Assembly: GCA_010093995.1 (NCBI GenBank) | Contig: ML992506.1 | Location: 1,616,992-1,636,991, forward strand | Source: Elsinoe ampelina | Lineage: Eukaryota | Length of the DNA stretch: 20,000 nucleotides | Direction of reading: 5' to 3' | In this document: positions 576-20,000 of the stretch, piece by piece | How positions within the stretch are numbered: the stretch's first letter is position 1 | Layout of the letters: every line of letters begins with the position of its first letter | The notes under the pieces: generated by a model | Told to the model about the DNA's origin: nothing | The model's database searches: none | Seen by the model: the letters and a program-made list of their open reading frames with translations, nothing else | Made by a program: the position numbers and the translations under genes

Positions 576-1436
576 CTATGAAGGCCATTTGACAGCAAGA
601 TGGTCGATCAACCATCTCCGGATCTTCTCATAATCTCTACATTTGTGCCTGGAGTCGAAGTCTGACCTCTCCCCAATCGGCGCCTCGGGGTCGATTTCAA
701 CGAGCATGGGTGCCGTATCGCCATAACACATCAATGTCTTCCGGAGCTCTTCGATACAATGGTCGGTGTGCATGCGCCGACCCACCGCTGTACTCTTCTG
801 CGGATTGGTGAGGTTGTGACGCTCATAGTAATCGCCCCAAGTGTACTGGCGGATGTAGTCGAGACAATGCAGCTGATGGAAGACACCGATAGCCGCTGCG
901 TAGCCGCCGCCCTTGTCGGATGCCACTGTCTTCCAATTCTTTTCTACTTTGACCCCGGTCACGAGATGGTGCAGTTTATCACGAGGTACGCTGACTTCAC
1001 CATCTGTCAAAGTCAGAGTCCGCACAGTATCGAAGGTGAGTTGCATACAATCCCACAATTCTTGCCACAGCTTCTCTCGCTCTATGGTTGGTGGACCTCG
1101 GAATGGGGTCTTATGGGAGAACATGTTATCGAAATTGTGTTCGTAGTATTCGACCGCTTCGTTGGCAGGGGCTAGGATTATCAGCAAGCAGGAAAGAATA
1201 GGCTGAGAAGTCCCACAATAGACGCTCAATCTTTTGACACACTCGGCTTCAGCCACGGGAAGGAACATGAAGATGGCGGCGGCGATGGATATTCCAGCCG
1301 CGAGAGACAGCATCATCAGAGAGGCTACAACGGGCCCCGGCCATGGCACTAGGCTATTGACTTTGGGCTTCCTGTGCTGGCCCAGCAATGCCTCATTTTG
1401 CTCATCGTCTTCGCTCTGATTGTGATCGGAGTCCAT
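576..1436 (-). CDS. DUF3328 / UstYa-like oxidase, ~256 aa, 3 exons
   Basis: Two HXXHC motifs (FHQLHCLDYIR, HTDHCIEELRKTLMCYGD), a C-terminal HKCRDYEKIRRW and one N-terminal hydrophobic helix. Predicted introns are 1216-1172 (GTGGGA..CTAG, giving LSVYSPA) and 1048-1004 (GTATGC..CAG, giving WDYGEV). The first ATG is at 1436; the ORF-track start at 1457 is TTG. Confidence 0.92.
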   Translation of the reverse strand: MDSDHNQSEDDEQNEALLGQHRKPKVNSLVPWPGPVVASLMMLSLAAGISIAAAIFMFLPVAEAECVKRLSVYCGTSQPILSCLLIILAPANEAVEYYEHNFDNMFSHKTPFRGPPTIEREKLWQELWDCMQLTFDTVRTLTLTDGEVSVPRDKLHHLVTGVKVEKNWKTVASDKGGGYAAAIGVFHQLHCLDYIRQYTWGDYYERHNLTNPQKSTAVGRRMHTDHCIEELRKTLMCYGDTAPMLVEIDPEAPIGERSDFDSRHKCRDYEKIRRWLIDHLAVKWPS

Positions 1437-2551
1437 TGCCTTTCTTAGAGTTGTCAACGACAGTGACGATAGAGGCTAGAGATCAACCCTTACTAGACAT
1501 GTATACTGGCCGAGATGGGCCGACCAAAGTGGTTGGACGAGGAAACCTGGATTCGGCCAGTCTCTACATGGTCAGCTGATGATCAGCTTACCAGCTTGAC
1601 ACAACACACACGCCAATCCCGGCAAACCACTTCCGCAACCCCTTCGGTCTGTCTCCTGATCAATGTCGTTCGAAATCATCTCGATACGCTATACAACGTA
1701 CTACACGAGACCCATACACGATGCAAGTGCACACCATCGTCACGACGCTTCTGCTCGCTACCTGGCGATTCGTCTCTGCTCTGCCGATACCTATCAACAT
1801 TCCTCCTGGCGCCGACACCTCAAACATTAGCTATGCCTACCAGGATGAAATCGACGCCGCAGATCCTTTCGAAGTTCTAGGAGAATAATGTGTCGGAGAC
1901 CTAGCTAGCAGGGGATGGAGCTATCAGATCAATCGAGACACTTGGGGACCATGCAATTATCGGCTTCATATGATCAACACCGAAAGGTCAGTTGCTGTAA
2001 GAAGAGGATTAAGGGCGCTCGGGTTGAAGAGAAGCAAGAGAAGCATGACACGCAGAAGATGGTCGACGGATGATTGGGTCATGGTACTCAGATACTCGAG
2101 TATTTGTGGTTCGATGCACTTCTCGCTTTCGAGAGCCAGGCAACGGACGACAATGGCAGTGTTCAGGTTCAAGGTCGACAATAGTGACGGCCAAATTGTA
2201 GACTCGATCATGTAATACATTTGAGCGCAGAACAAGTGCGACGATAGAAGGCTGCGTCTTGTGAAACAGTCCCTATTCGAGATGCGCATGATCAATGATA
2301 TTGTTATTGTCCTAGACCGAGAACGGCGTAGCTTCCGGTCAGGCGACCTCGAGATTGCTACACTCGGCAGGTACATCTGCACCTTTTCGCGACTGACAAC
2401 AAAGTGGCGCTCGTTAGTTCATCATGCCGCATGAGCTGAAACGCGTAGCTATCAGTCAGCATATCGCGTTAAACACAATGTAGCACCGATATATACAGCT
2501 CTCTTACCGCTTCTCGAGCATAAAGCTTGTCCAAAGCTTGTCGATTCTATC

Positions 2552-5500
2552 ATGACTTCGCGGAGCTGTCTATCAGCTGCCGACGGCGTGTTCGGTCCTA
2601 GTGTCGACGGCTGTCGTGATGGCTTCGACTTCACATTGTCTTTTGAGAGATACCTATTCAACCTGGTCCCGTCAGTCTTATTCATTGTAGCTGCTGTGCC
2701 GCGGGTCTGGTATCTGGCACGCAAGGAACGATGTATCAGTCATTCCCGCAGCGAGTACACCAAGCTGGTGAGTCTCAGCTCTCGGTGACCCGGTGAAGTC
2801 ATTCACATCTCCGCAGGCCACAATTATAGCTCTTGGAGTGACACAGCTGGCTCTTCTGGTGCTATGGAGCCGCGACAGAGGACTCACTGCGTGGGAGCAG
2901 TCGGTCGCCGCATACAGCTTGTCACTATTCACCTGCATCGTAATGGTCCCACTATCATATCTGGAGCAAGCACGATCATTACGGCCTTCTGTACTGCTGA
3001 ATGCTTATTTACTTGTAACCGTCATCCTTGATGCCGCTGTTGTGCGGACATTATGGTTGCTCGACAGTATACCGAAAAGCATAACGGGCATGCAAACAGC
3101 AGCTCTTGCTTGCAAAATTGCCATTCTTATCTCGGAAAGTCAACACAAGCGGAATCGTCTGGTGAAGTCTGTTAACGAGAAGAGTCCAGAAGACTTCAGC
3201 GGCTTGTACAGCCAGAGCCTGTTCTGGTGGTTGAATCGCATCATGTGGCAGGGTGCAAAGATGGTGTTGAGCCCAACTGACCTCTACCCCATTAGCAGTG
3301 ATATTGCAGCCAAGCAGCTGAGTGACAGATTCGAGGAATACGCGGTGACTGTAGCTGCCAAAGGCCGGCAAATCCACCTGATATCTGCTATTATCAGTCT
3401 TCTGAGATGGCCCATTGTCCTTGCAGTCTTACCACGCATCGCCCTTCTAGGCCTCACTCTCTGTCAGCCACTACTCTTGCGACGACTCTTGAGCTACTTG
3501 CAGGCTGGAGCGCTCAACAGAGATGCCAACACAGGGTATGGTTTGATCGGTGCCTACGGCGTTGTCTATGTTGGGATCGCTGTGAGTAAAGACTTCCACA
3601 AACAAGACCAGCGGAGCTGACATGAATGGCAAGCTTGTATCCGCTCTATACTGGCACCGTCAATTCCGGTTTCTTACCATGATGCGCGGCATCTTGACAA
3701 CTGCCATCTACAAGAAGGCCCTTGACTTGGACATCAACGCTGAAGATCGAGCGGCTTCCGTCACACTCATGAGTACTGACGTCCAGAGGATCATCAGAGG
3801 TTTTTTGGACATCCACGACATGTGGGCGAACATTATTCAAGTCGGCGTTGCATCGTACTTGATCGAGACCCAGTTAGGCACTGCCTTCGTCGGGCCTCTT
3901 GCTGTTGCCATCGGTAAGTGCCATCCATTATCATGTATGACCAGCGTCTGATCGATGAAGTCGCTGTTGGAGCATCCCTTGTTTTGGCAAGGTTTGTCAC
4001 TTTCTTCCAAATGCAATGGATCGGAAAGATTCAAGAAAGGATCAGTAAGGTCAACTTTCGACGAACACAGACAGTTATTGACCCTTTCACAGCCTTCATT
4101 ACATCAGCTCTGGGATCCATGAAATCGATCAAGATCGGCGGCCTGGAAAACATCGTCACACAGCTCCTGCACAACGCTCGGAAAGCTGAATTGGATGCGG
4201 CGGGCAAGTTCCGGCTCCTCTCCGCTGTGGCAGTATGCATTGGTATGCAAATTCGAAGAACAAGACCTGTGCACAGCAGAACTGACGTTGAAAAGCCCAG
4301 ATGCCCATGCTCTTGTCGCCGGTCATTACATTCGCCATCTATCTTGGCCTGCCAGAATCTCGCGATACCGGAGCAGATGTCGTCAAGTTGTTCACCTCTT
4401 TATCTCTTATCGTGCTCATGGCTGAACCCCTCTTTGGCCTCCTCGAGAGCGTCATGGATATTGTCTCGGCCTTTGCTTGCATTGCCAGGATTGAGACTTT
4501 CCTTCAAAAAACATCCAGGCATGGCTTTGGCTCTCCAGTGATGAATTCGCTGGGTGATCGTAAGTATGCACCAGTCGATGAAAGCCAAGTGATCGATGTT
4601 CGGAATGCTACATTCACCTGGGAAGGTAGTTCATCGCCCACCCTACACAACATCACAGCCTCTATCCCATCCCGGGATCTGACAATGGTTGTTGGTCCCG
4701 TTGCAAGCGGCAAGAGCACATTGCTCAAGGCTTTCTTAGGCGAGGTGAGGAAGACAACAGGTGAGATGACTGTTCACGCATCAGGCCTGTCGTGGTGTGA
4801 ACAGACACCGTGGCTGCAGGTGAGTCAGTGTCCCCTCACAAGAAACAGTCGCTGATATTACAGAACCAAAGCATCAAGTCAAACATTTGTACCTTTGCAG
4901 ACTTCGACAGCGAATGGTATCACGCCGTGGTCAATGCTTGTGACCTGCAGCGTGACTTCGACGGCTTGACGAATGGCGATGAAACCATGATTGGCAGCAA
5001 AGGTACGGCACTCAGCGGTGGTCAGAAGCAGCGAATAGTACGTCAATTCCTTCAAGTCGGCGAGACTTGGGGCGGTAACAGCTGACCGTGTAAGGCACTT
5101 GCACGAGCGGTGTACGCAAGACGACAGCTTAACATACTCGATGACGTCCTGAGCCAACTAGATGCAGCCACACAAAAGCTCGTGTTCAGTCGTCTGCTTT
5201 CCGAGGGCGGTCTTCTGCGTCGCGGTGATACTTCCGTCATTCTTGCCACGCATGCTGGTCAGTCCAACGGGATGGTATGATCGCCATTCACTAACGGGAG
5301 CAGTGCATTTATTGCCGAACGCCGATCATGTCATCGTGCTATCGAGTTCCGGTACCGTCCTTGGCCAAGGGACCTATACCAATCTACAACAGGCTGGGAT
5401 CTTGGATCACTCTGACTTCCATAACAGTGCGCCTTCTCCAGACGGCATTGACTCAACGAATTCAGTGACAAAGGACACACCTGCAAGCACGGATGCCGTG

Positions 5501-7547
5501 AAGGCACCTGACTCCGCCCAGAAGATCACTTCAGACCAACGGCGACTGACTGGAGACATGTCGATCTACAAGTACTACTTCAGCAAACTGGACAACAGCA
5601 TAGTCATCATCTTCCTGATCCTCCAGATTGCCTACGCTTTCTTTTCAACGTTCCCATGTAGGTCAACTTAAGGGTATAGGCCCTGAACGACGTATTGACT
5701 TCAACGCAGACATCTGGTTGAAATGGTGGACCGATACCAACCAGCAGCAGGAAGCGAGAAACAGCAACTTCTACATCGGCATCTATGCAGCACTTCAAAT
5801 GGCCGGACTTCTGTTCGCAGGAGCAACCACAATTTGGTCCTTCAATGTCATGGCCGTCTCAACAGGCACTGCACTACATGACATTCTTGCGAAGACAGTG
5901 ATGTCGTACGTTTCACCTCTGCCATACATTGAATCTTCTGACCATAGTAGTGCCTCATTTCCAGTCCTTGGTCGTATTGACACTGGAGCCATCTTGACAC
6001 GATTCAGTCAAGATATTCAGCTTATCGACATAAGCTTGCCACTAGCTCTGCAAGTTGTCGTCGGAAGTCAGTACAGCTTCAGCGTTCCATGATGCAGTAC
6101 TAAAGAACGTAGATACACTCATCTGCCTTGGTCAAATGGGCTTGATTGCATCAGCCTCCGCCTATATCGCTATCTGCTACCCTCCTCTTTTCATCATCTT
6201 CTACTATGTGCAGAAGTACTATTTACGTACATCACGCCAGATGCGGCTTCTAGACCTCGAAGAGAAAGCTCCAATCTAGTAGGATTCGTATTCCATGTCA
6301 CATACACTACTGACGGTACCGTAGCACTCAATTCACAGAGACTATTGAGGGGCTGGCGACAATCCGAGCATTTAACGGGAATGTGGCTGCTATTCAGAAA
6401 AACCATGAGCTGGTTGATAAGGCACAGAAACCCTTCTACCTGATGTATGCCATCCAGCGCTGGCTAGCGTTGGTACTGGATTTGATCGTTGCGGCACTCG
6501 CCGTAATCATCGTCGGCGTAGCCGTGGGACTGCGGGATGCAGCTTCACCGGGTTTGACCGGAGTCTCTCTGACACAAATCATCTCCTTCACTTCTGCGCT
6601 GAAGCTGTTGATCATGTTTTGGACGCAGCTGGAGACCTCTATCGGAGCAGTGACTAGGGTCCGAGAGTTCGAAGCAGACACACCCACGGAGCATAAGGCT
6701 GATGAAATGGCTGAGCCGCCTGAGACCTGGCCCGAGAAAGGCACGTTGGAGATGCAAGGTATTCGTGCCCAGTACAAGTAAGGCTCATCCCATCATGCGA
6801 CGCAGCGAGTTTCTGACGACAACAGGGCTGGATCACAGGATTGGGCGCTACAAGACATCGATATCTCTATTGAGCAAGGTCAAAAGGTCGCCTTGTGTGG
6901 AAGGACAGGTAGTGGTAAAAGCACCATGGCGCTGACATGGTCACGACTTCTCGATGAAGCGGATGGCAGTATTTACATCGACGGACTGGATCTATCGACC
7001 ATCAATCGCACTGTCCTACGATCTCGTCTGACATACATCGCTGACGATCCCTTCATCCTCCCTGGATCGGTTCGAGACAACATTGACATCTTCCAAGTTG
7101 CTGAGGACGAGACCATTACCTTGACGCTCAAGAAGACGTTGTTACTGGACGTTGTAACAAGCGCCGGAGGACTGGATGCACCAATGTCGTCTCTGATCCT
7201 GAGTCAAGGACAGAAGCAGCTCTTGAACTTCTCAAGAGCTCTGCTAAAGAAGAACGGGAAGCTTATCCTCCTTGACGAGGCTACGAGCAGGTATAATGAT
7301 CCTATCTCTCACGACTTCGTTCGCTGACTGCGAAAGTGTTGATCAAGAAACCGACAAGATCATTCAGAAGCTGATCCGGACGGAGTTCAAAGACCATACA
7401 GTCATTGCCATTGCTCATCGCCTTGATACGATCCTCGACTTCGACTTTGTAGGAGTCATGGACAGTGGGCGGCTTGTCGAGTATGGAAAGCCTTCGGATC
7501 TGCTGCAACAACAGTCACGATTTCGGGCACTGCGTGATTCCGCATAG
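2552..7547 (+). CDS. ABCC/MRP-type ABC transporter of the kind common in fungal secondary-metabolite clusters, ~1438 aa, 15 exons
   Basis: N-terminal C...D..FGP.V..CR..FDFTL.FE motif. NBD1 has GPVASGKS, LSGGQ and ILDD; NBD2 has GRTGSGKS, LSQGQ, LLDEATS and IAHRL. A continuous frame results from introns 2768-2816, 3582-3633, 3914-3960, 4045-4092, 4243-4295, 4820-4863, 5038-5094, 5258-5303, 5658-5709, 5906-5950, 6067-6112, 6279-6324, 6778-6825 and 7291-7336. Confidence 0.95.
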
Positions 7548-7717
7548 ACGTGCACAGACAAAGGATGGCTGCAGGAGGAGGCATCAGCTTACTTTCCATG
7601 TACCACGTCGCCCAAATTCGTTTGGAAGCATATCAGGCATCTCCTAGCACGTCGACTTGAAGGACCAGAGCTTCTAGTGTACTGTCGTTCTACAATTCCC
7701 CATCTCATTCCCTATTC

Positions 7718-8658
7718 ATGGCAGAAGTCGAAACGATCAGGGCGGGAGCCTCCAAGGAGGATTACATCCGACAACCTTCGGGTTGGAAAACCACTGATCC
7801 AGTGCCTCTCACTCGTCAATCTTTCCTAGACCTGTTGGCTGGCCATACACCTTTGATCAAGATCCCCAACTTCATATCGTCCGAACAGAGCACTGCTCTG
7901 TTCAACCACCTCTCCCCAGCTTTCACTCCCTACATCCATGCTACAGGTCCTGCAGTGGAGAAGGTTGGCATAGCACAATTCGAGTTCCAAGCCCAATCAC
8001 AATCCGACTTTCATTCTCGAACAGGCGACGGTATGGCCCCCTCAAACACTCCATTCTTCATCGCTGATTCGTTCAAGAAAAGCACCGCTACTTCACCGCC
8101 GCCTCGCAGCTCCAATCTCTCCACTCGTCTCTCACTGCCGTGACTGACACTAACCTCCTTGACAAATTCCTTTCCACTGTCCGCTCCCTCGTCCCCGAAT
8201 GGGACGTCGATATCGCCACCGAGCCCGACGGCAGACGCTACTTCGCCGGTATCTTCCGCAAAATCAACGGCGGCACACCCATCCACTGCGACTGGTGCCC
8301 CTACGACTGTTTGACCGAAGACTGGATCCTGAGCAAAGTGACATGTCAAGCGGTCTTCAACCTCTACCTGTCCGAGACTGATGGTGGGGAGACGACGGTG
8401 TATGATACGCAATGGACCGAGGAGGCTTTGAGGTTCAGGGATGAGGAGACGTATGGGTATGGCAGTGGCCTTGTGGAGGGGAGGCAGAAGGTGACGTTTA
8501 AGCCGAGGAAAGGGGAGTTGTGGTTGTTTAATTCGAGGAATATGCATGAGGTTGCGCCGGTCAAGGGAGAAGGGATGAGGGTGGCGATGGCGAGTTTTAT
8601 GGGGTTGTTGCCGGCTGAGGTCACTGGTGGGAGGCCGAGGTTGATGTTTTGGTCGTGA
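7718..8658 (+). CDS. Fe(II)/2-oxoglutarate-dependent dioxygenase (probable hydroxylase), ~297 aa, 2 exons
   Basis: Intron 8031-8077 (GTATGG..GCTGAT..AAG) joins the two ORFs. The HXD...H triad is PIHCDW...FNSRNMHEV, with DSBH-like strands FNLYL..TDGGETTVY and PRKGELWLF, and a downstream Arg (GMRVAMASF) at the 2OG-binding position. Confidence 0.85.
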
Positions 8659-8761
8659 GGGAGTCTGGTGATCGTTGGCCGTAGTCGAATGCAATGATTG
8701 TGGTCCCTACGTCCAGCTCATGAGTGGCTTGAGTAGCCATATTGCTCGGTGTTGTGTTCAT

Positions 8762-9679
8762 TCATGATAGAAAGAGCGTCTCGTAGTGCCGCTGACAGTA
8801 CTCTGCCAATGAGCCAGCGACCATGGTCCCTCCAACCAACCAGAAGTTCGTGTAGAACCACCAAGCACAACTCTCCGGCTTCTTCAGATCCACCAAAACC
8901 ACCATAGCCGCCAGAGTCACCGCCGTCCCAGAGCACCCGATCAGGTGATACGCCCACCCAAAACCCCCAATCACACCAACCCTCACCAAACACCCAACCT
9001 GCACCGCCCCGAGCACTGTACACAACGTCTTCGTCTCCCCCCTAAACCTAACAGCCATACTCTTCACCCCAGCCTTGACATCATCCTCCAAATCCTGATG
9101 CGCATAAACCGTATCATAAATCATCGTCCAAACCACATTCGCCCCACAAAGACACCCGGTCGCCCACCCCCTCCCTTCAGCAAACGGATCCACCCCCACC
9201 GCATAACAAGCAGACACAATCCCCCCAGCAAACGGAAACCCCAGAATAACCTGCGGGTAATGCGTAAACCTCTTCCCGAACGGATACACCATGAACAGCA
9301 AATACACCCCCACCACAACCCCCCTGCACTCCCCCGGCCACAACCCCATCATCCCCCACCCCATCCCCGCGAGCACGACCGTGACCCCGTGTCCCTCGAG
9401 CGACGTCACCGCCCCTCTCGCGATGGGCCTGTTCTTGCACCGCGCGACCTGCCGGTCGAAGTCTTGATCGACGTTATCGTTCCAGGCGCAGGTGGAGCCG
9501 CGGAGGAGGACGCAGAAGGGGAGGAAGAGGAGGGCGGTGCGCAGGAGGAGGGAGGGGGGGAGGAGGGTAGCCGAGGTGGAGGCGGCGAAGGCGAGGCCGA
9601 TGAGGTGGGGGAGGTAGAAGGCGTAGAGGCCTGAGGGGCGGTCGAGGCGGATGAGTTGGAGGTAGGGGTGGAGGGGCAT
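8762..9679 (-). CDS. UbiA/Coq2-like membrane aromatic prenyltransferase, ~305 aa, no intron detected
   Basis: PYLQLIRLDRP, first Asp-rich motif CAWNDNVDQDFDRQVARCKNRPIARGA, YPFGKRFTHYPQ, second motif YDTVYAHQDLEDDVKAGVKSMAV, and multiple TM helices. The first in-frame ATG is at 9679; the exact start is uncertain. Confidence 0.92.
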   Translation of the reverse strand: MPLHPYLQLIRLDRPSGLYAFYLPHLIGLAFAASTSATLLPPSLLLRTALLFLPFCVLLRGSTCAWNDNVDQDFDRQVARCKNRPIARGAVTSLEGHGVTVVLAGMGWGMMGLWPGECRGVVVGVYLLFMVYPFGKRFTHYPQVILGFPFAGGIVSACYAVGVDPFAEGRGWATGCLCGANVVWTMIYDTVYAHQDLEDDVKAGVKSMAVRFRGETKTLCTVLGAVQVGCLVRVGVIGGFGWAYHLIGCSGTAVTLAAMVVLVDLKKPESCAWWFYTNFWLVGGTMVAGSLAEYCQRHYETLFLS

Positions 9680-10334
9680 GGTGGGTGGAGTGGGAGAGGG
9701 GTCGATGGGGTGGTGAAGGCGTTGGTTGTGAGGGGGTTGATTGATGGTGGGTTGTAGTTGCAAGTTGGTAAGATGGAGGAGAGGATGAGATGTACGGGAG
9801 CTGTCGAGCTGGGGTGATGTTTGAGTAGGTAAAAATTGGGTTACCGAGGGTTGTGCAGTCTGTCTTCGCCAAGGGTCGGCGGAATGGATCTCTGCAGGGC
9901 TGTTAGTACACCTTCAGTCTATGATCAGATCTGAGAGTTCCTTTGTACCTCTTATCGTGTATCGGTATTCGGGACTGCAGCTTCTTGGCAGTACAGCAGG
10001 AGATCGGTCCTATTCCAGCGTCCTACTTAACAAAGTCCTACTAGTCCATTGTGTCGTTCCGAGGAATGGTCTAACAGTCATTGTAGCTAATTAGCTAGTC
10101 TGATGATTATATTTGTTGCACAACATAAGGTAGGGTCACAATTGAAAGCCCAATGGAAAGGATGACCTCCTAGCAGATGGAACTATAGTGCTGTAGCTGC
10201 TCGAGCAAAGAGAATATAAGCTGAGATCAGGAGTGAAAGGGTCAGCTTACCTGGCAGTACTTACCGGATCATGCAGATGTGGAGGTTCACCCGAGCGAGT
10301 AAAGTGTCACTGGAAAAAGCTATGGAACCTCAGC

Positions 10335-11746
10335 ATGGCTACTGACATGTCCATGGAGACCCTTGTTGGTGAAATCAGACGCACTTTGGATGCTGTATCT
10401 GGTCTGTGCATATCCGAATGCGAGCAAGGACATCGCAAGGAAGCTCTCGAATTAGCAAGGACGCTCTCAAGGAAGCTCGAGGAACCACGAGAGACTGCAT
10501 TTCGTCATGCCTTTGAGGTAAGGTGCCCGCCACACAGCGTTTGCGTGGTATTGATACTCCCTAGTCGCACAATCGAAGTCTCTGTCTTCGACTGGCGGTT
10601 GATCTGAGGCTGTTCCACACGCTGAGTCGACTGGGAATCGCAACGGGTCAAGAGCTGGCTAAAGAATGTGATGCCGAAGAGCGACTGGTTGGTAGGTGCT
10701 CTTGGGTTCCGACTATTGCGCACTCTCTCATTGGATGACCTAGTCCGCATTATGCGAATGCTCTCCGCGGAGGGATATTCCGAGGAGATCGCCGAGTGGA
10801 CGTGGTCACCGACAGATTTGACGACAACTATGACCAACGCCTCTCTAGAGGCGTGTGTCGTTCACAGGTAATGTCCCCTGATAGATAAGGCACATTTCGG
10901 GAGCAGCGTTGATTCCGCAGCTTCGATATAACGGCTAGGGTACAATCCCATCTACCGGAATACTTCCAACAAGTCGGCTACCAGAGTCCGACATCCCACA
11001 GGGATGGTCCGTTCCAGTACGGTATGCAAACCGATTTGAGCTTCTTCGACTTCCTGCATGCTCACCCCGAGAGAGCATTGACCTTCGATGCCTATATGAC
11101 AGGCAACAGAAGTACACGCAAGCATTGGCTAGAATGGTTTCCGTTCCGTGAAGAAGTTCTGGATCCATGGATACAGAGGACAAGACATGATGACGATAGC
11201 GTGCTCCTTGTGGATATGGCCGGAGGTAGGGGTCGCGATGTCACCCTGCTGACGCAACGATTCCCAGAGGCAAGAAGCCACGTCGTTCTCCAAGACCTGG
11301 CAGGTACTCTGCAGGACTTACGGATGGATCGAGATAAAATCAGCGTTTGTGCTCATGACATTTTCGCTCCGCAGCCAATTACAGGTTCGTGGAGAAGGGC
11401 CGAGTCTTGCGCTTACGGGCTAATGCTAATGATAGGTGCTGAAATCTACTATACCCACTTCGTCCTGCACGATTTCTCGGATGAACGTTGCGTGATTATG
11501 CTCAACCATGTCAAGGCTGTAATGCGACCACATTCAAGGATTCTCCTCAATGAGATCGTATTACCTGAACAGGGTTGTCCCTCCTTCTTCGCGGCTGCCG
11601 ACATCACCATGATGACCAACCTGTCAGCATTGGCAAGGTCCGAGAAGCAGTGGAGACATTTGATTGAATCTGTTGGGTTGGAAGTGGTCCGGATATGGAA
11701 ATCGCCAGATGCCGAGGATTGGGAGGCAGTGATTGAAGTAAAATAG
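10335..11746 (+). CDS. SAM-dependent O-methyltransferase (COMT/Methyltransf_2 type, fungal OmtB-like), ~402 aa, 5 exons
   Basis: Introns 10518-10564, 10692-10743, 10868-10920 and 11385-11435 give one frame. It has an N-terminal dimerisation region (LRLAVDLRLF), SAM motif LLVDMAGGRGRD, VVLQDL, HDIFAPQP, catalytic VLHDFSD and RSEKQW. Confidence 0.92.
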
Positions 11747-11990
11747 AGCCTGCGAGCAATGAACTGAACAGAACAGCATTAGGTTAGCGTACGCTGGGAG
11801 ACGTGTTTCGATCCAAATGGCACTTGATGACTCCGATAAGCCTAAGTTGTAGTCATGACCACACTGTATAAGGACTGGAATGAGAAGACGTCGGAGATCG
11901 CATCTTGAAGCCAAGACGACCACGCCAAGGCCCCCCGGCGCCACGACAGTGAGGCATAATTGCAACTCAAGCACTCCATTGGTAATCGAC

Positions 11991-14900
11991 TCAGTCTACG
12001 AGCGTTCCCCGGAGCTTTGCCGCATCGGGACTGTGCTGTATGAGGTCGTGAAACGCACCTCGTGCTTTGTACAGGTCCTTGGGCGCGCCGCATTCGACCA
12101 GCCTACCGGCATCCATGACCGCGACTTGTTCGAGATCCAGGACGGTGCTCAATCGATGCGCAATGATAATCAAAGTGCTTTTCCCGCACGTTGAGCGAAG
12201 TGTGGTTTGAATGCAGTCCTCAATATCTGCATCGACCGAGCTGGTAGCCTCGTCTAGTATGACTATCCGGGCGTCCCGAGCGAGGCCCCTTGCCAGGCAT
12301 ATCAATTGACATTGACTCTGTGAGAGGTTCTGTCCGCGCTCCGTGACCTCAAAGTCTAAATCAAGAGATTGGCGCGTACTTTGGCTCGAGCTGGATTGTG
12401 TGTCCACCGATGCGGGATCACGCGCTAGGCCTACGTCCTGGAGCGCTTGATTCAAGGACGAGTCACGCAATGTCGCCGAAGGATCGAGATTGTAGCGAAT
12501 TGTGCCAGCAAACAGCATCGGGTCTTGAGGTACAAAGCAGATGCGCGCTCGAAGCTCAGCAAGTGGGACATCCTGGATGTTGAGGCCATCGATCTTGACG
12601 AATCCCGAGCTGAAGTGCAGACACCGAAGCATTGCTTGTGCGAAGGAAGACTTCCCAGCTCCGGTCCTACCGACAATTCCAACGCGGCTTCCCGGCGGTA
12701 TGTCGATCGTGATTCGTTTGAGGACAGAAGGCTCCCCAGGAATGTAGCTTGCACAAAGATCTTGAATAGCCACATGACCATGACTCGGCCAGTCTTGAGG
12801 AATGCTAGCTCCAGAGTAGTCTTCGCTCGGGACTCTGGCGTACTCTACGATACGCTCAACTGCGTTCATGTCTATCTGCAGACTTGCATATCTTGAGATT
12901 GCCTCTTCAGCATGAGCAGAATATCCAAGCGCCAAGGTCAGAACCAGTCCAGCCAAAGAAGGATCGATGTCGAGATTCGCAACGTACAGTGCTACAACGA
13001 GCACGAACGCTGAGCCGATCATGCCCATGCGGAAGTCCATCCACTGGTATACGAGCGAGAATGCTTGACTGGCTCTGATCTGGTCATCCAAAAGCTTATG
13101 CATGCGGCGAAGATAATACTGCTCCTTGCCAAAAGCTCGAATGGTCGATGAACCAAGGCTGCAGGAGCTCAGGAGGTCTAGCACCGGAGACCGAGTGACC
13201 GCATCCAGTCGCCTCGTACCACGAGCCGCTCTTAGATAGATCACTGAGTACCAGAGTCCGAGCACCATTAGGAGGCTCTCTGGTATGATGAGCAGCGGAG
13301 AAATCAACAAAGCCGCCACAGTCAAGGTCAGTAGACCAAAGACTGATGAGAAGAGCATGTGCCCGTCTCCGGGGAGCTTCGTATCCATCAGAGTGCAATC
13401 GGCAGACATGCGATTCTGGATCCGCCCAGTCGGCGTCTTGCTAAACCATTGCAAAGGAGCATGTAGCAGACCGGCCAATGTGGCTGCGAAGAGCTTCTCG
13501 GACGCAGTAAGCGAGCCGCGATAGAAGAGCCAGCATTTAGCTCCCTCCAGCAAGGCTGCTGACATAGAAATTGCAACGTACAGAAAGAGATAAGCCAGTA
13601 AGTGCAACGTCTGGGACTGGATTCTTGAAGATGGTTCAGCCGGCTTTGATCCAGCGTCCTGCCAGGTCCAGACAGCTAGTGCAAAGTTGCGTGCTAGAAA
13701 GACTGCTTGAGAAAGCCCGACGGTCAGAAGTGCCAAGGTCCAGAAAGAAGGTGTGCCTGCCGCTCCTGAATACTTTGCGTAGAGGGACCATGGGACGTGG
13801 CCAGTCTCTGTGTGCTCGTCTGTCTGGTCTCCGATGTCGTTTCCCACAAGTTGATCACTGCAAACGTGCCCACGATGTCGTCGATCCACGAGCGAGTCGG
13901 GAGTCGTCTGCATGAGATTTGTCTGCCTGGCCCGGCACTCCTCGTTGTTGGCATATACATGCGCAGGGTGACCATGCACGAGTTCGACAGCATAAGCTGC
14001 GTCGCTCAAGAACCTGTCTGGCTGGTTACTCGCCACAATGACTGTTCGTTCGCCCGTCAGCGATCCCATGACACCGAACTTTGCAATCTGTTGAGCTGTC
14101 CTGGTGTCGAGTGCGCTGAACATCTCATCAATCACAATTGTTTGAGCGTGCGAATACAGGGCTCGAGCTAGGGAGAGTCGCAACCTTTGTCCGCCGCTCA
14201 GTCTGAGACCCTGAATTCCGATGTTGGTAATGTCGCCGTATTCCATCGCCTCAATGTCCGGACCCAGGGCAACAGCCTCGAGAACCTCGTTGTATCTCTT
14301 GGTCTGGTAGGGTGACCCAAAGAGAACAGCATCTCTCACGCTGACAGCTTCGAGCCAGGGGTCCGACGCAACGTATGCTATGGGACTGATCACATTCTGA
14401 TCGGAGCTGCGATGCCCTTGATGCCTGGCTGAACTCTCGGCAATGATGAGCTGACCATTTGTCAAGTACGCTTCACCGAGGATTGCGTTGAGCAGCAGTG
14501 ACTTCCCCGTGCCGCTCTGTCCAAATACAAGACTGGACTACTGATTAAAGACCGCTTTCCATGTCGTCGCAGAAAATTGCACTGACCTGAAAGATCTGCT
14601 TGGAAAAGCACAGTTGACCCGTGCCAACATGAATGATCGGTCAGTGTCAGAGTCTTTGCCAGGACTCCATGCTATTGTGGCGTTCTGTAGCTCCACTTGA
14701 CTTCCAGGAACCCTAAGATCTGGCTGCTCGAGTCGATGGAGGTACTTTGCAATTCTCGCACAGCTACTAAGGGCGTCTAACGATTGTATGAGGCCGTAAG
14801 GCAATAAGGAGAGCGCAGATTCGAGGTTTGAGAACGTCGCCAAAGCAGTAAAGGCGATGGCAGGATTCAGTGCACCAGCGATGAACGCATAAGATCCGAG

Positions 14901-16544
14901 AGAGAGCACAGCGAGCAGTATAGGAGACAAGATCCAGAAGACTCGTAGGATGACAGTCCATCGGAAGGCCATCCGCTGTTCGTTGAGCTCGTCTTGACGT
15001 TGCTGCATGATCTTACGCTGCCACCGATCTTCGGCACCTGCAAACTTGATCTGGCGTATGCCGTCAAGAGCTTCTTTGGTAGTAGAGAGCCTCGTGTCTC
15101 GAAAGGCCATTAGTTTTGACTGACACTGAGCATACCTTTGCGAGGCAGCCGCATTCAGAGGCATAAGAAGTAGCGGTCCAAGAATGCCGATCAATGTGGG
15201 TATCCAACCGATCAGGTTGAAGAGAAGGCCAAGTGATGCAACGACTGTGATCAAGATGTTCAGAAACACGTGCTGTCTCGCCGCAAATTCTGCCACTCTT
15301 GGGGCGTCCACGCCGACGAGACTGACCACATCCTGGGAGGCTGATTTGTCCGCTTGTACCTGGACGTATCTTTCATCTTTCTGTGGCGATATCCCGAGCT
15401 CTGCTAGATGGATACCGTCCGATTTGTGGTCGTGGGGAAGCCCAACCTGTGAAGCGTCCATGTCGACCGCAGAGGCGGGAGTGCTATGAGAATGCCGTTG
15501 CAGGCACCGTTCAAAGATTTTACAGGAGAGTTGCGCGCGTATCGGTAATTCCAGTCTCGATGAAGAGGTCCACAGGAGGCTATAGCGATTAGCTCTGAAG
15601 AATGCCTGACGGTGGTGCTCATCTCACTGTGACTCAACCATCTGTTGCACAAAGCACGCCAGGCCGAAAACGACCGCACATTCAATTCGCTCTAGCTGAG
15701 CGTATGTGCTGGACGAATCAATTGATTGCAAAAGCCTAAGCAAAGCAATCTGGGTAAATAAAGCTGATAGCGCTAGAGTTCCGGACAAGACCCACTGCAA
15801 GTAGCAGGAGAATCGGTGAGATTGGAAAAGAGCCAGGACCAGGCCAGAATGACTAGACCATGCTCGATTGAAGTTGACAGTCAAAGAGGAGGTACTTGAG
15901 ACAGTCCATATGCTCGGCAAGGACCGAAGCTGCAGTCTTTCTACAACGGATGCATGATCAAGAATAGGTTTCGCCCAAGCAAAGGTCAAGCTGCTCGAAG
16001 TCAGCTTTGGTCATACTGTCAATCTTGTAGTACCTACGATCGCCAATGCGTACTTTGCCTGCTGTTACCATGTTCATCGTGCCTTCGGTGCCGTGGCGAC
16101 AACTGGGAACACCCCATGATAAGAGCCATTTGCGTCAAGCAAAGAGTTGCCATGGAGATATAGAAACACAGCAATGCCTTCTGCGAAGATGGCAACGGTG
16201 CCAATGTTGCGTTGAGCGAGTTGTTCTTCAACTCCGAATATGCAATCGCAAGGATCAATGCTTGTGGGGGCAACGCCAACCAGCCATTGTACTTACCTAG
16301 CAATTTTCGATGCTGACAGTGTACAAGGGTCGCTAACGATAGCAAGAACAGCTTAAGGCGAATGAGCTGCTTTGCTGCGACCCGTATACAACCATGTACT
16401 TACCCAGCTTCCAATGATGACGGTCGCGGCCATTTCACGCGGCCGGACGCTTGCTTTGTTGACCGACTGTTGTGCCTGTTGAAACTCCACTATCGCAGCC
16501 AGAATGGTGCCAGCCACATTGATGGCGATCATCAATGCATCCAT
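11991..16544 (-). CDS. Second ABCC transporter (Ybt1/bile-acid-transporter-like), ~1450 aa, at least 5 exons; 5' end uncertain
   Basis: Introns 16403-16352, 16037-15991, 15627-15580 and 14586-14533 give a continuous frame. Motifs are LTFAWAKPIL, EALDGIRQIKF, NBD1 GQSGTGKS / LSGGQ / IDEMFSALD, and NBD2 GRTGAGKS / VPQDPMLFAGTIRYNLDP / LSQSQ / ILDEATSSVD / IAHRL. Confidence 0.9.
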
Positions 16545-16980
16545 GGGGTCGTGGTAGGTTTATCCGCAACCATGGAAGTGAGGGTGCAAGAGCGTTGTAG
16601 TTTCTCACCAGCAAGCTAATATGGCTCGTCGGAAGATGTGTAGAGCACGTCGTGATGGTGATCGATGCGAGACTTTGTCGCCGCACAATCCGACACAATA
16701 ACCCGTCTAGCGACTTCTACTCTCGCTTCCAGTCCTGGCCACATAACCAGTGAGCTGATGTTCGTGGGACATGTTGCACAGCATAGCTGGGGACTGAGGT
16801 CGACGAGCGCATCCTTGCGGTCGGTTTCGTGGTCGTGGTACACCATGCTCCGACCAAGTGTCAGCTTACATAGCAGTATGAAGAAGCAGGGGAGCTTGAA
16901 AGAGGATGGGGAACAAGAAGGTCGAGGTACAGTAGCGTGCGGCTCAACGCGACGCGTCAAAACGGCTGACTAATCCACTG

Positions 16981-17122
16981 TGTTGTAACTAGCAAATCGG
17001 ATCGAGAGACGTGTGTTTCATTCAGAGAGTTACAATAACCGATTTATCTACTGTGCGTGCGCTGACTCATCAGTACCAGTTCTTTAGTACTAGAGAAGCT
17101 ATACTAGCATTCTATTATAACA
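16981..17122 (-). repeat. Putative 3' LTR (142 bp) of the Copia element
   Basis: The ends TGTTGTAA...TTATAACA form an 8 bp inverted repeat with one RIP-type mismatch. They are immediately followed on + by CTCCCCCT, which is the PPT on the minus strand. Confidence 0.75.
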
Positions 17123-17130
17123 CTCCCCCT
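17123..17130 (-). other. Polypurine tract (AGGGGGAG) preceding the 3' LTR
   Basis: The minus strand reads AGGGGGAG-TGTTATAA, the typical Copia PPT/LTR junction. Confidence 0.75.
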
Positions 17131-17281
17131 CTAGTATAGATTACTAAAGCTAGAGAACTGTCCTATTACATGTAAGTAAAGTGATTAGCTTATTACTTTA
17201 TCTCTTTATAATTGCTTATAATTGTTAGTGTTAGCTAATTATTAGTAAGAATTTACTATTAGTTTAGCTTATAATTGCTAG

Positions 17282-17491
17282 NNNNNNNNNNNNNNNNNNN
17301 NNNNNNNNNNNNNNNNNNNNNNNNNNNNNNNNNNNNNNNNNNNNNNNNNNNNNNNNNNNNNNNNNNNNNNNNNNNNNNNNNNNNNNNNNNNNNNNNNNNN
17401 NNNNNNNNNNNNNNNNNNNNNNNNNNNNNNNNNNNNNNNNNNNNNNNNNNNNNNNNNNNNNNNNNNNNNNNNNNNNNNNNNNNNNNNNNNN
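17282..17491. other. Assembly gap (210 N)
   Basis: Run of N characters. Confidence 1.
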
Positions 17492-18899
17492 ATAAGCGCT
17501 ATAGTATAGTAATAGCTAGGTATTAGTAGTATTACTACTAGTACTAGTGCTCTAAGTAGTCTACTAGGTAGTAGAGGTAGTAGTAAGAAGAGAAATTCTC
17601 TATTAAGGTTACCTAGTACTTCTAATGTTAATTATAATACTACTATAAGACTAATTACTTGTCTTAATGCTCTTAGTAAGTAGCTATAAAGTATTAATAG
17701 CATAAGCTAACATTAATAGCCTAATTAACTTAGACTTTAACTTAATAGTTAGCCGACATAATCTAGAATACTCTCCTTAGGCTTAGGATAATTAGTTATT
17801 ATAACTATACTAACTTATATCCTATCTAGAGGTCTATAGTAGTCTAGGCCTTTAGTACCTATAGTGTATATCTAGTAGTTACTAATCCTATTCTAGTTAA
17901 GGATCTAACTAAGTAAGTTAACCTTACTAGATCTACTAACTACTCTACTACTTTAATAGCTTCTAGTGCTACTAGTAGAGTAGTCTACTATAGCACTAAT
18001 TACTGTACTAAGTATTAGGGATCTAACCCTAGCAATAATTAGAGCAAGGGTAGGGGTAGTAAGTTTAGTAAGTATATTACTTTACCTAGTTAGCTTAATA
18101 AGGCCTACACTTACTATACTTATAGTAACTAATATGCTAGATGTTCCTTAGCTAACTATACTCTAACTCTAAGGCCTATTAGCTCTCCTAAACCTATAAG
18201 GACCTTAAGTAGCTTAAGAGTTATTACCTAGCCTATTCTATATAGCTTAATATATCTACTAATAGAGCTCCTAAGGTCTATCTCTTTTAGTAGTGCTTTA
18301 CCTTAGAGGTTCTTACTAAGGGCCTATATACTAGGGGCATTATTAGGTATAGTTAACACCTCGATAACTTATACTAACTCTTGCTACTTTATAGTAGTCC
18401 CTACAAACTTTGTAGATTCTACTAACCTAACTACTACTAAGGTTTATAACTTAGCTACTATAGTAATAAACTATATAGTAGAGCTTATAAGAATTATAGC
18501 TACTAGCTACCTTAGTTAGCTTTCTTCTATTTATGCCTTTATACTAGGCCTAGTACTAATAAGGCATAGTAGGTCTAGATCTAACACTTCTATAAGGTCT
18601 ACTAGTAGTAATAAGGGAAGAAGTTCTCCTTCTATAAAGAAGTAATTAGAGGTAGAGGATAGGTAAAAGTTATTAAAGGTAATAATAGTACTAAGTAGTA
18701 GATATAGCTTAGGTATAAGTAGCTAGTAATAGAGTTATAATAGCTTTTTCTTTCTCTCTTCTTAATAATAAAATAATTTACTTTAAGCTTTAGACAAATA
18801 AGATAGCTTATTAAGTAGTAGTAGTATAAATAATATACTTAAAATAATAATATATATAAAATCTAAATAAGTATATAGTGTAGATATATACTAAGTAAT

Positions 18900-20000
18900 T
18901 AGCCTTTACTAATTAATTAAGGATCTTGTTAAGAGACTTAGGCTTTATAAGTACATTAGCTAATTACTAAGTTATATTAATATACTTAAGCTTAATTACT
19001 TTAAGTTTATACTACTCTCTATAGTAATAATTCTTTAAATTAACATACTTAGATCTTCTTAAATTAGTATAATCTCTTATAAGTTTAATAGCTAACTTGT
19101 TATTAACAAAGACTATAGTTAGGCTAAGGTAAATATTAGTAAGTAGCCTAAGTTTAATAATAAGATTTCTTAACTAATTAATCTCTCTATAGGTCTTAGT
19201 AAGGGCAAGGTATTTAGCCTTAGTACTTAATAACATAATAATCTTCTATAGCCTTAATTTCTAAATAACTAGTATACTAAGTATATAAATAATAGTACTA
19301 GATATAGATCTTGTAGTTAATCTATCTCTAGCAAAGTCTAAGTTAGAGTAGGCCTTAATTGTGTTAACTAATAGTCTATTAGTCTTCTTAAAGGTAAGGC
19401 CCTTTATAATAGTCCTATTAATATACCTCTAGATCTACTTAGCTATAACTACATAAGCTATAGTTAGATTCTAAAGGAACCTAGCTAGGTAATTAGTAGC
19501 ATAGCTAATATTAGGCCTTATATTATTAGCTAGATATTACAATTTACTAATAATTCTATTAAATGTCTTATAGTACTAAGTATTAACTTAGCTATTAGTT
19601 AGTTTATAGAGTTGATTAATAAGATGCTTTATAGTTCTTACTTAGTAAAGATTATAACTTTTAAGCTTCTTCTTTAAGTAGTGTAATTGCTTAATCTTAA
19701 TTAAGTCCTTAGTTCTATAAAGTTAAACACTAAGGAAGAGGTTTAAGTTTATAATCTTTATTAGAAACTTAAGATAAAGATCTTTAACTAGCTTATCTAT
19801 ATACTTCTACCTAGTAGTAATAATCCTAAAGTTATTAACATACACAAGAACTATATAATACTTATTAATAAAGAGATAGGTATTACTATAGGATCTAATA
19901 AAACTAAGTAATAGAAGTGCCTTAACTATAGCGTTATACTAGAGGGTAGTAGCTTACTTAAGCCTATATAAGCCCTTTATAAGAACAATAAGCTTGTCCT
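18900..20000 (-). pseudogene. Copia pol relic: reverse transcriptase + RNase H
   Basis: The minus frame matches Copia motifs after reversing RIP changes: KGLYRLK*A (LYGLKQA), LVYVNN at 19842-19831 (YVDD), IRPNISYA (TRPDISYA), AYSNLDFARD (YSDSDFAGD), LSTKAKYLAL (SSTEAEY), VNNKLAI (DNKSAI), RSKYVNLK (KHVD) and LANVLIKP at ~18960-18940 (LADVLTKP). The left end is approximate. Confidence 0.9.

Follow-up and report, generated by a model that had tools for sequence, protein, structure and literature searches.

Genes at a contig end of Elsinoe ampelina are probably the tailoring and transport half of a split nonribosomal peptide synthetase cluster

Among described systems, the cyclochlorotine (cct) cluster of Talaromyces islandicus combines a nonribosomal peptide synthetase (NRPS) peptide with membrane-anchored, lumenal DUF3328 copper enzymes that carry two HxxHC motifs; its CctR is a lumenal copper hydroxylase acting on the NRPS peptide (PMC12435403). 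The DUF3328 family is not confined to peptides made by the ribosome and then modified post-translationally (RiPPs) (PMC12048977). A second set of uncharacterized clusters from Dothideomycetes, CO-OCCUR family221 and Macph1_c26, found in Z. tritici (Mycgr3_90558), M. phaseolina, B. dothidea and O. disseminans (Ophdi1_312349), joins a 13–15 kb NRPS gene to two groups of Fe/2-oxoglutarate (2OG) dioxygenases (PMC7530617). Here we analyze a 20,000-nucleotide stretch of Elsinoe ampelina (the window; assembly GCA_010093995.1, contig ML992506.1, forward-strand positions 1,616,992 to 1,636,991) with genes for a DUF3328 protein, two ABCC-type transporters (ABCC1 and ABCC2), a WelO5-like 2OG dioxygenase, a UbiA prenyltransferase and an O-methyltransferase (OMT). 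The original prediction saw no core synthase in this set and proposed either that UbiA itself forms the scaffold or that the genes are the tailoring arm of a split cluster whose core lies beyond a transposon. The second proposal is supported by our results, since a four-module NRPS lies across the transposon: the window is probably the tailoring and transport half of one uncharacterized NRPS cluster that was split by the assembly.

Joining of two contig ends across a Copia element

The last base of the window is also the last base of its contig (C6), so the lack of a core gene in view is an assembly effect. C6 stops inside a Copia element, the 3' half of which (16981..20000, minus strand) has a 3' long terminal repeat (LTR; 16981–17122), a polypurine tract and reverse transcriptase/RNase H remnants, and bears the marks of repeat-induced point mutation (RIP; TpA/ApT about 2 from 16981). 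A condensation-domain search of the genome returned 19 matches, with one long NRPS frame less than 6 kb from the end of a second contig, C3. This end closes with a 5' LTR, a primer-binding site and part of the interior of an element from the same Copia family; its LTR and that of the window are 95% identical. The five bases preceding the C3 5' LTR are the five bases following the window 3' LTR, namely the putative target-site duplication CAGTG (element strand; 16976..16980, minus strand). CAGTG flanked one of 29 3' LTRs (the window's) and one of 29 5' LTRs (C3's). In a control, the 5-bp flank was common to both LTRs in 10 of 11 same-contig LTR pairs; the two LTRs of the single miss stand in reverse order and therefore belong to different elements. 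Relative to a copy on C19, the C6 and C3 halves are collinear, with no overlap and ~0.6 kb missing. By its matching duplication and collinear element halves, the NRPS would be physically linked to the window genes. Copia would then have inserted into a divergent ABCC2-NRPS promoter of ~0.9 kb (436 + 429 bp), where it now sits ~430 bp from either start codon, and the assembly would have broken inside the element.

Other continuations were considered and rejected. C6 itself has none beyond the element. C22 carries a 3' LTR with a different flank and thus a separate insertion, and core genes on C30, C19, C17, C12, C2 and C1 had no matching end in the stretches fetched. LTR target-site duplications can rejoin clusters broken in assembly. 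Further contig pairs emerge from the 5-bp flanks of the same Copia and may be of use for scaffolding: the starts of C7 and C19, the C16 end and C52, and C18 and C83, the last perhaps by chance.

On C3, the NRPS gene (C3:2262668-2249342, minus strand) encodes an intact 4410-aa multimodular synthetase of (A-T-C)x4 architecture, with four adenylation (A), four serine-bearing thiolation (T) and four condensation (C) domains, and a terminal T domain without the serine. Beside it are a bZIP-ankyrin transcription factor (TF; 345 aa, with basic region and ankyrin repeats; C3:2248135-2249218, plus strand) and a second 2OG gene (C3:2246138-2247276, plus strand) whose top solved relative is UcsF (E = 2.6e-59). 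An ankyrin-repeat open reading frame (ORF; L057:4792-5778) adjoins this 2OG gene at what is probably the far edge of the cluster. The far side of the element, which the original prediction had proposed to inspect, thus holds nothing on C6, and the NRPS, TF and second 2OG gene on C3; the statement that polyketide synthase (PKS), NRPS, dimethylallyltryptophan synthase (DMATS) and TF are absent stands for the window and, as regards NRPS and TF, falls for the joined locus.

Aligned to GrsA (1amu), the first A domain (A1) has Leu at the Asp235 position and would either load a non-amino acid or be inactive. A metagenome NRPS beside the window 2OG family (L017:5782-6399) likewise has an A domain without the amino-binding Asp, in a similar context, and modules without this Asp may thus represent a conserved type. 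Read by eye, the pocket of A2 is lined with acidic residues. A3 resembles what we take to be proline-type codes, for which a literature check gave no confirmation; an NRPS A domain of metagenome locus L006 has the same pocket residues (50% identity). None of the seven ketosynthase matches in the genome lay on C6 or near the C3 end, and the meroterpenoid (MpaA/MpaG-like) framing of the original prediction loses force with a core that is an NRPS instead of a PKS. Elsewhere in the genome, two PKS-NRPS clusters stand directly beside RIP-mutated repeat blocks (C22:1-10000, L033, with P450-like and enoyl-reductase-like genes read by eye; C1:3232000-3245000).

An exact 9-mer, TCAGCTTAC, recurs in five of eight upstream regions of the joined locus: in the divergent promoter of the DUF3328 gene and a small ORF (1583..1591), upstream of the window 2OG gene (7584..7592), in the UbiA/OMT divergent promoter (10242..10250), upstream of ABCC2 (16861..16869; all plus strand) and, on C3, ~235 bp upstream of the NRPS start. 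The background was two copies in 220,000 bases of other loci of this genome, and the best common 9-mer reached five regions in none of 500 shuffles and in none of 500 random region sets. A genome-wide pattern search with a longer version of the motif was uninformative, with six matches compared with 19 for the reversed control. To judge from these sequences, the 9-mer probably ties both halves into one regulon.

Window genes, their transcripts and their relatives

All six window genes have stop-free models and Pfam matches that back their labels, in agreement with the intact set originally described. Its bounds also stood: to the left are genes that by their translations encode a kinase, an F-box/LRR protein and a GST-like protein, and to the right is the RIP-mutated Copia. 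The inventory of six was correct for each gene named and overlooked a seventh, unannotated ORF of 55 aa (1721..1888, plus strand). The DUF3328/UstYa copper-oxidase-family gene (576..1436, minus strand; 256 aa; PF11807, E = 2e-37) has two predicted introns (1216-1172 and 1048-1004); its product has both features of the UstYa family, two HxxHC motifs and a hydrophobic N-terminal anchor, the latter called by eye. ABCC1 (2552..7547, plus strand; 1438 aa) has 14 introns, and ABCC2 (11991..16544, minus strand; 1450 aa) has four predicted introns. The OMT gene (10335..11746, plus strand; 402 aa, four predicted introns; PF00891) has MpaG' as its top PDB match (E = 1.5e-32). UbiA (8762..9679, minus strand; 305 aa, single exon; Pfam match above cut-off) contains both Asp-rich motifs of aromatic prenyltransferases, has 4-hydroxybenzoate polyprenyltransferases as nearest relatives by sequence comparison, and is 39% identical to the COQ2-like gene of the same genome, the two being separate paralogues.

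The window 2OG gene (7718..8658, plus strand; 297 aa, one intron; PF22814, E = 2e-12) encodes the triad H174-x-D176...H261 plus R272, identified by a conserved-residue check. In WelO5-type halogenases, Gly or Ala replaces the iron-binding carboxylate. The PDB matches to WelO5 were weak, and H174-C-D176 aligned with the Gly-to-Asp form of WelO5; the halogenase hallmark was not found in the window 2OG, which is therefore of hydroxylase type rather than halogenase type, since the iron-binding Asp is retained.

Transcript evidence came mainly from one RNA run (X3), whose assembled contigs were mapped on the window. All 14 predicted ABCC1 introns and the sole 2OG intron appeared as joints in X3. 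A 5,476-nt contig (window 2410-8600) spans ABCC1 into the 2OG gene, so the two transcripts overlap or abut. UbiA had almost no contig cover across four RNA runs, which is uninformative on its expression. The RNA contigs fall on window genes and cannot rank genes; the sign that core and tailoring genes may be co-regulated is the shared 9-mer.

Linkage in other genomes was judged by distance in accession numbers or locus tags, with the intervening genes unseen. On this evidence the DUF3328, 2OG and UbiA genes stay together in four species of Elsinoe, and two of the three at a time do so in four distant genera. In E. fawcettii, consecutive accessions are DUF3328, one unseen gene, 2OG and UbiA; in two E. 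australis assemblies the three fall within five accessions; and in E. batatas, where UbiA is 90% and 2OG 93% identical to the window proteins, they share one contig. UbiA and 2OG are 5–7 accessions or locus tags apart in T. islandicus, P. odoratum and L. subvulpina; in two Rhypophila genomes UbiA is six such steps from DUF3328. In the T. islandicus case the relatives are PISL3812_06638/06646, tags that presumably differ from those of cct.

The 2OG family points to NRPSs as partners. NRPS or NRPS-like domains flank the 2OG gene in five of the ten metagenome loci with ORFs listed, and a PMC7530617 supplement records the window 2OG group with NRPS in eight co-occurrences for 18 genes (p = 0.034). 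The C6-C3 join produces the same combination of an NRPS with two 2OG groups as the clusters of that paper, which lists the two halves of the present locus apart, as c21 (NRPS) and c22 (class 'n.d.'). As the original prediction had anticipated, core-based mining misses the window half: in the available sheets the NRPS is in the antiSMASH set, and ABCC1 and 2OG are only in a class-less CO-OCCUR singleton.

Further observations concern these families. An atlas search with the 2OG returned WelO5-family clusters. The metagenome locus L006:5774-20895 has a window-type 2OG (63%) and an NRPS that includes A2-like and A3-like domains; ~4 kb away is an ORF with Kex2-type repeats. At L009, L010 and L012 the same 2OG family stands beside an ATP-grasp ligase, a threonine-aldolase-like gene, a second 2OG and a P450 (L009 being the only one scanned), an NRPS-free peptide-ligase cluster. 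In E. ampelina itself, about three DUF3328 genes in a row (C4:622278-627360) are likely a separate RiPP locus. An O. disseminans gene beside the OMT (group MCL010389) was not counted as a UbiA; it may be a DMATS, because one member of the group sits in an 'indole' cluster.

Proposed pathway and rival explanations

With the genes, the evidence for the join and the shared motif observed as above, the chemistry would run as follows. The joined order would read DUF3328, small ORF, ABCC1, 2OG, UbiA, OMT, ABCC2, Copia, NRPS, bZIP-ankyrin TF and UcsF-like 2OG. The TF would bind TCAGCTTAC and through it drive the cluster genes, which we consider fairly likely. The two 2OG enzymes would oxidize amino acids for modules 2–4, an assignment we favor slightly; the acidic pocket of module 2 suits a basic residue, and module 3 would be proline-like by specificity code. 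The Asp-less module 1 would load a starter other than an amino acid, the simplest candidate being an aromatic acid with a prenyl group from UbiA and an O-methyl group from OMT. That this prenylated aryl acid is the NRPS starter is a tentative proposal; otherwise UbiA would have the peptide as its substrate, or A1 is inactive. Release or cyclization of the chain would fall to the last C domain. One ABCC transporter would bring the peptide into the lumen of the secretory system; there the membrane-anchored DUF3328 enzyme would hydroxylate or chlorinate it by analogy with cyclochlorotine, a pair of steps whose chances we judge to be even. The other ABCC would export the product, likely an acyl-peptide of four units or a cyclic depsipeptide. 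For a WelO5-like fungal 2OG family that has no annotated function, the suggested role would be to oxidize amino acids for NRPS modules. Fungal peptide prenylation is usually carried out by DMATS enzymes; if UbiA does supply the NRPS starter, this would be a new route to prenylated peptides.

Several observations weigh against a single split NRPS cluster. About one chance 5-mer match is expected in the 841 flank comparisons, and 30 loci were fetched per search from 192 LTR candidates, so the matching flank alone is no proof of the join, which we infer from sequence with no read spanning it. The regions upstream of ABCC1, the TF and the C3 2OG gene have no copy of the 9-mer, even with one mismatch allowed. 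In A1 the P-loop Lys is replaced by Ser and the A7 motif is deviant, for which reason the domain may be inactive. The DUF3328 region (466-2205) is covered by a single unspliced X3 contig, and the OMT region (10399-12478) by another unspliced contig, the latter cover possibly being antisense read-through from ABCC2; the two DUF3328 introns, each 45 nt long, keep the reading frame, and a transcript that retained them would still encode a full-length protein. In Trapelia the best 2OG and UbiA matches are on different contigs. Finally, in the fetched flanks of 18 metagenome 2OG loci (half of these flanks being under 10 kb), UbiA, DUF3328, OMT, ABCC and small ORF were found at none, and the full gene set is therefore not the norm of the 2OG family.

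The small ORF raises the alternative of two pathways at this locus under common regulation: that of the NRPS, and a RiPP pathway with the 55-aa peptide as a single-core precursor modified by DUF3328. By hydropathy the ORF has a hydrophobic, signal-peptide-like N-terminus, and Tyr residues are present. A search of 1.84 billion proteins gave three matches. The best, P0248 (E = 6.7e-7), is secreted and contains three KR-delimited repeats; the remaining two appear to match through repeats by chance. The ORF corresponds to one copy of the tail of this Kex2-type repeat: its 23-residue tail is identical at 13/23 positions to each of two P0248 repeats and at 12/23 to the third, a score reached by none of 5000 shuffles. 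It is divergent from DUF3328 with the 9-mer between them, and the X3 contig that covers it extends beyond its stop as far as 2205, ending before the ABCC1 transcript begins at 2410. Single-core precursors are possible according to PMC12048977. Against this, the RNA evidence is one unstranded contig, and the ORF is a single unit with no KR site and no repeats, not a Kex2-delimited precursor with repeated cores, and therefore may be a vestige. Its exact sequence is absent from the protein collection searched, and none of the matching accessions of E. australis or T. islandicus appears in the available part of the PMC7329392 Kex2-repeat table. P0248 had no match in the E. ampelina genome, which is uninformative, and its atlas search gave only matches under 0.9. 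NRPS products are likewise tailored by DUF3328 enzymes (PMC12048977, PMC12435403). We regard the ORF as a candidate single-core RiPP precursor or vestige, and two pathways at one locus as unlikely. A variant, in which one regulon yields both a terpene-aryl-peptide hybrid from a UbiA-made starter on A1 and a single-core, Kex2-independent RiPP from the 55-aa peptide and DUF3328, has a slim chance of being correct.

Decay or partial silencing of the cluster is similarly improbable. By this account Copia uncoupled the NRPS, UbiA and OMT, leaving only ABCC1 and 2OG properly expressed, and it would fit the position of the element close to both start codons, the deviant A1 core motifs, and spliced introns confined to ABCC1 and 2OG among the X3 joints displayed, which were all but two. 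All ORFs are nevertheless intact and free of a RIP signature, the 9-mer is kept on each side of the insertion, and UbiA and 2OG remain highly similar to their E. batatas counterparts. The last alternative makes UbiA the scaffold-forming enzyme on a primary aromatic acid and the neighboring NRPS a separate pathway. The nearest relatives of UbiA and the MpaG' likeness of OMT are in its favor, core-less prenyl-aromatic clusters exist in fungi, and most 2OG-NRPS loci examined lack UbiA. Yet the UbiA/OMT promoter has the 9-mer in common with the NRPS and 2OG, UbiA keeps company with the NRPS-associated 2OG in four genera and with DUF3328 in two, and an Asp-less starter module is available to take an aryl acid. 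With an NRPS core present across Copia, the stand-alone UbiA enzyme and core-less cluster of the original prediction lose their ground, and we consider this alternative very unlikely. One split NRPS cluster is thus the reading we retain. It unites a pair of orphan fragments of a grapevine pathogen as a single cluster of nine or more genes, which is open to testing and has relatives in several classes of fungi.

Comparison with described systems

No characterized cluster with this gene set was found in the literature searched, which was mostly non-subscription and had MIBiG outside its range, nor in the available parts of PMC6941272 and PMC13608686. Where cct has three DUF3328 genes, the locus has a single one, and it differs further in having UbiA, OMT, two 2OG enzymes and a first module that lacks the Asp. 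The family221 and Macph1_c26 clusters share the NRPS and both 2OG groups, and that of O. disseminans further has two ABC transporters and an OMT; the rows available in PMC7530617, which give selected genes only, list no DUF3328 or UbiA and name no product, and Macph1_c26 has a DMATS.

The remaining likenesses are partial. UcsF/EcdK-type amino-acid oxygenases of NRPS and PKS-NRPS clusters resemble the C3 2OG, whose best solved relative is among them. UcsF takes part in making methylproline precursors; a gene for pyrroline reductase was not seen in the joined locus. Dikaritin RiPP clusters (ustiloxin, phomopsin, asperipin-2a) similarly place DUF3328 beside a small secreted acidic-tailed peptide and a transporter, whereas here there are no repeated cores, Kex2 sites, tyrosinase or peptidase, and the upstream motif is shared with a full NRPS. 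Mycophenolic acid-type meroterpenoid clusters (MpaA/MpaG) have in common UbiA and an MpaG-like OMT; in contrast, the joined locus is without PKS or terpene cyclase and has an NRPS core. ToxE and APS2 are basic-region-ankyrin regulators of cyclic tetrapeptide clusters, and the TF is like them, by description rather than by sequence, in its basic region and C-terminal ankyrin repeats beside a four-module NRPS; the motif here is TCAGCTTAC, and no fatty-acid synthase or epimerase domain was seen. As an NRPS cluster, the locus is of a known kind. Its tailoring set of UbiA, DUF3328 and WelO5-like 2OG and its Asp-less starter module are unusual, and point to an undescribed compound.

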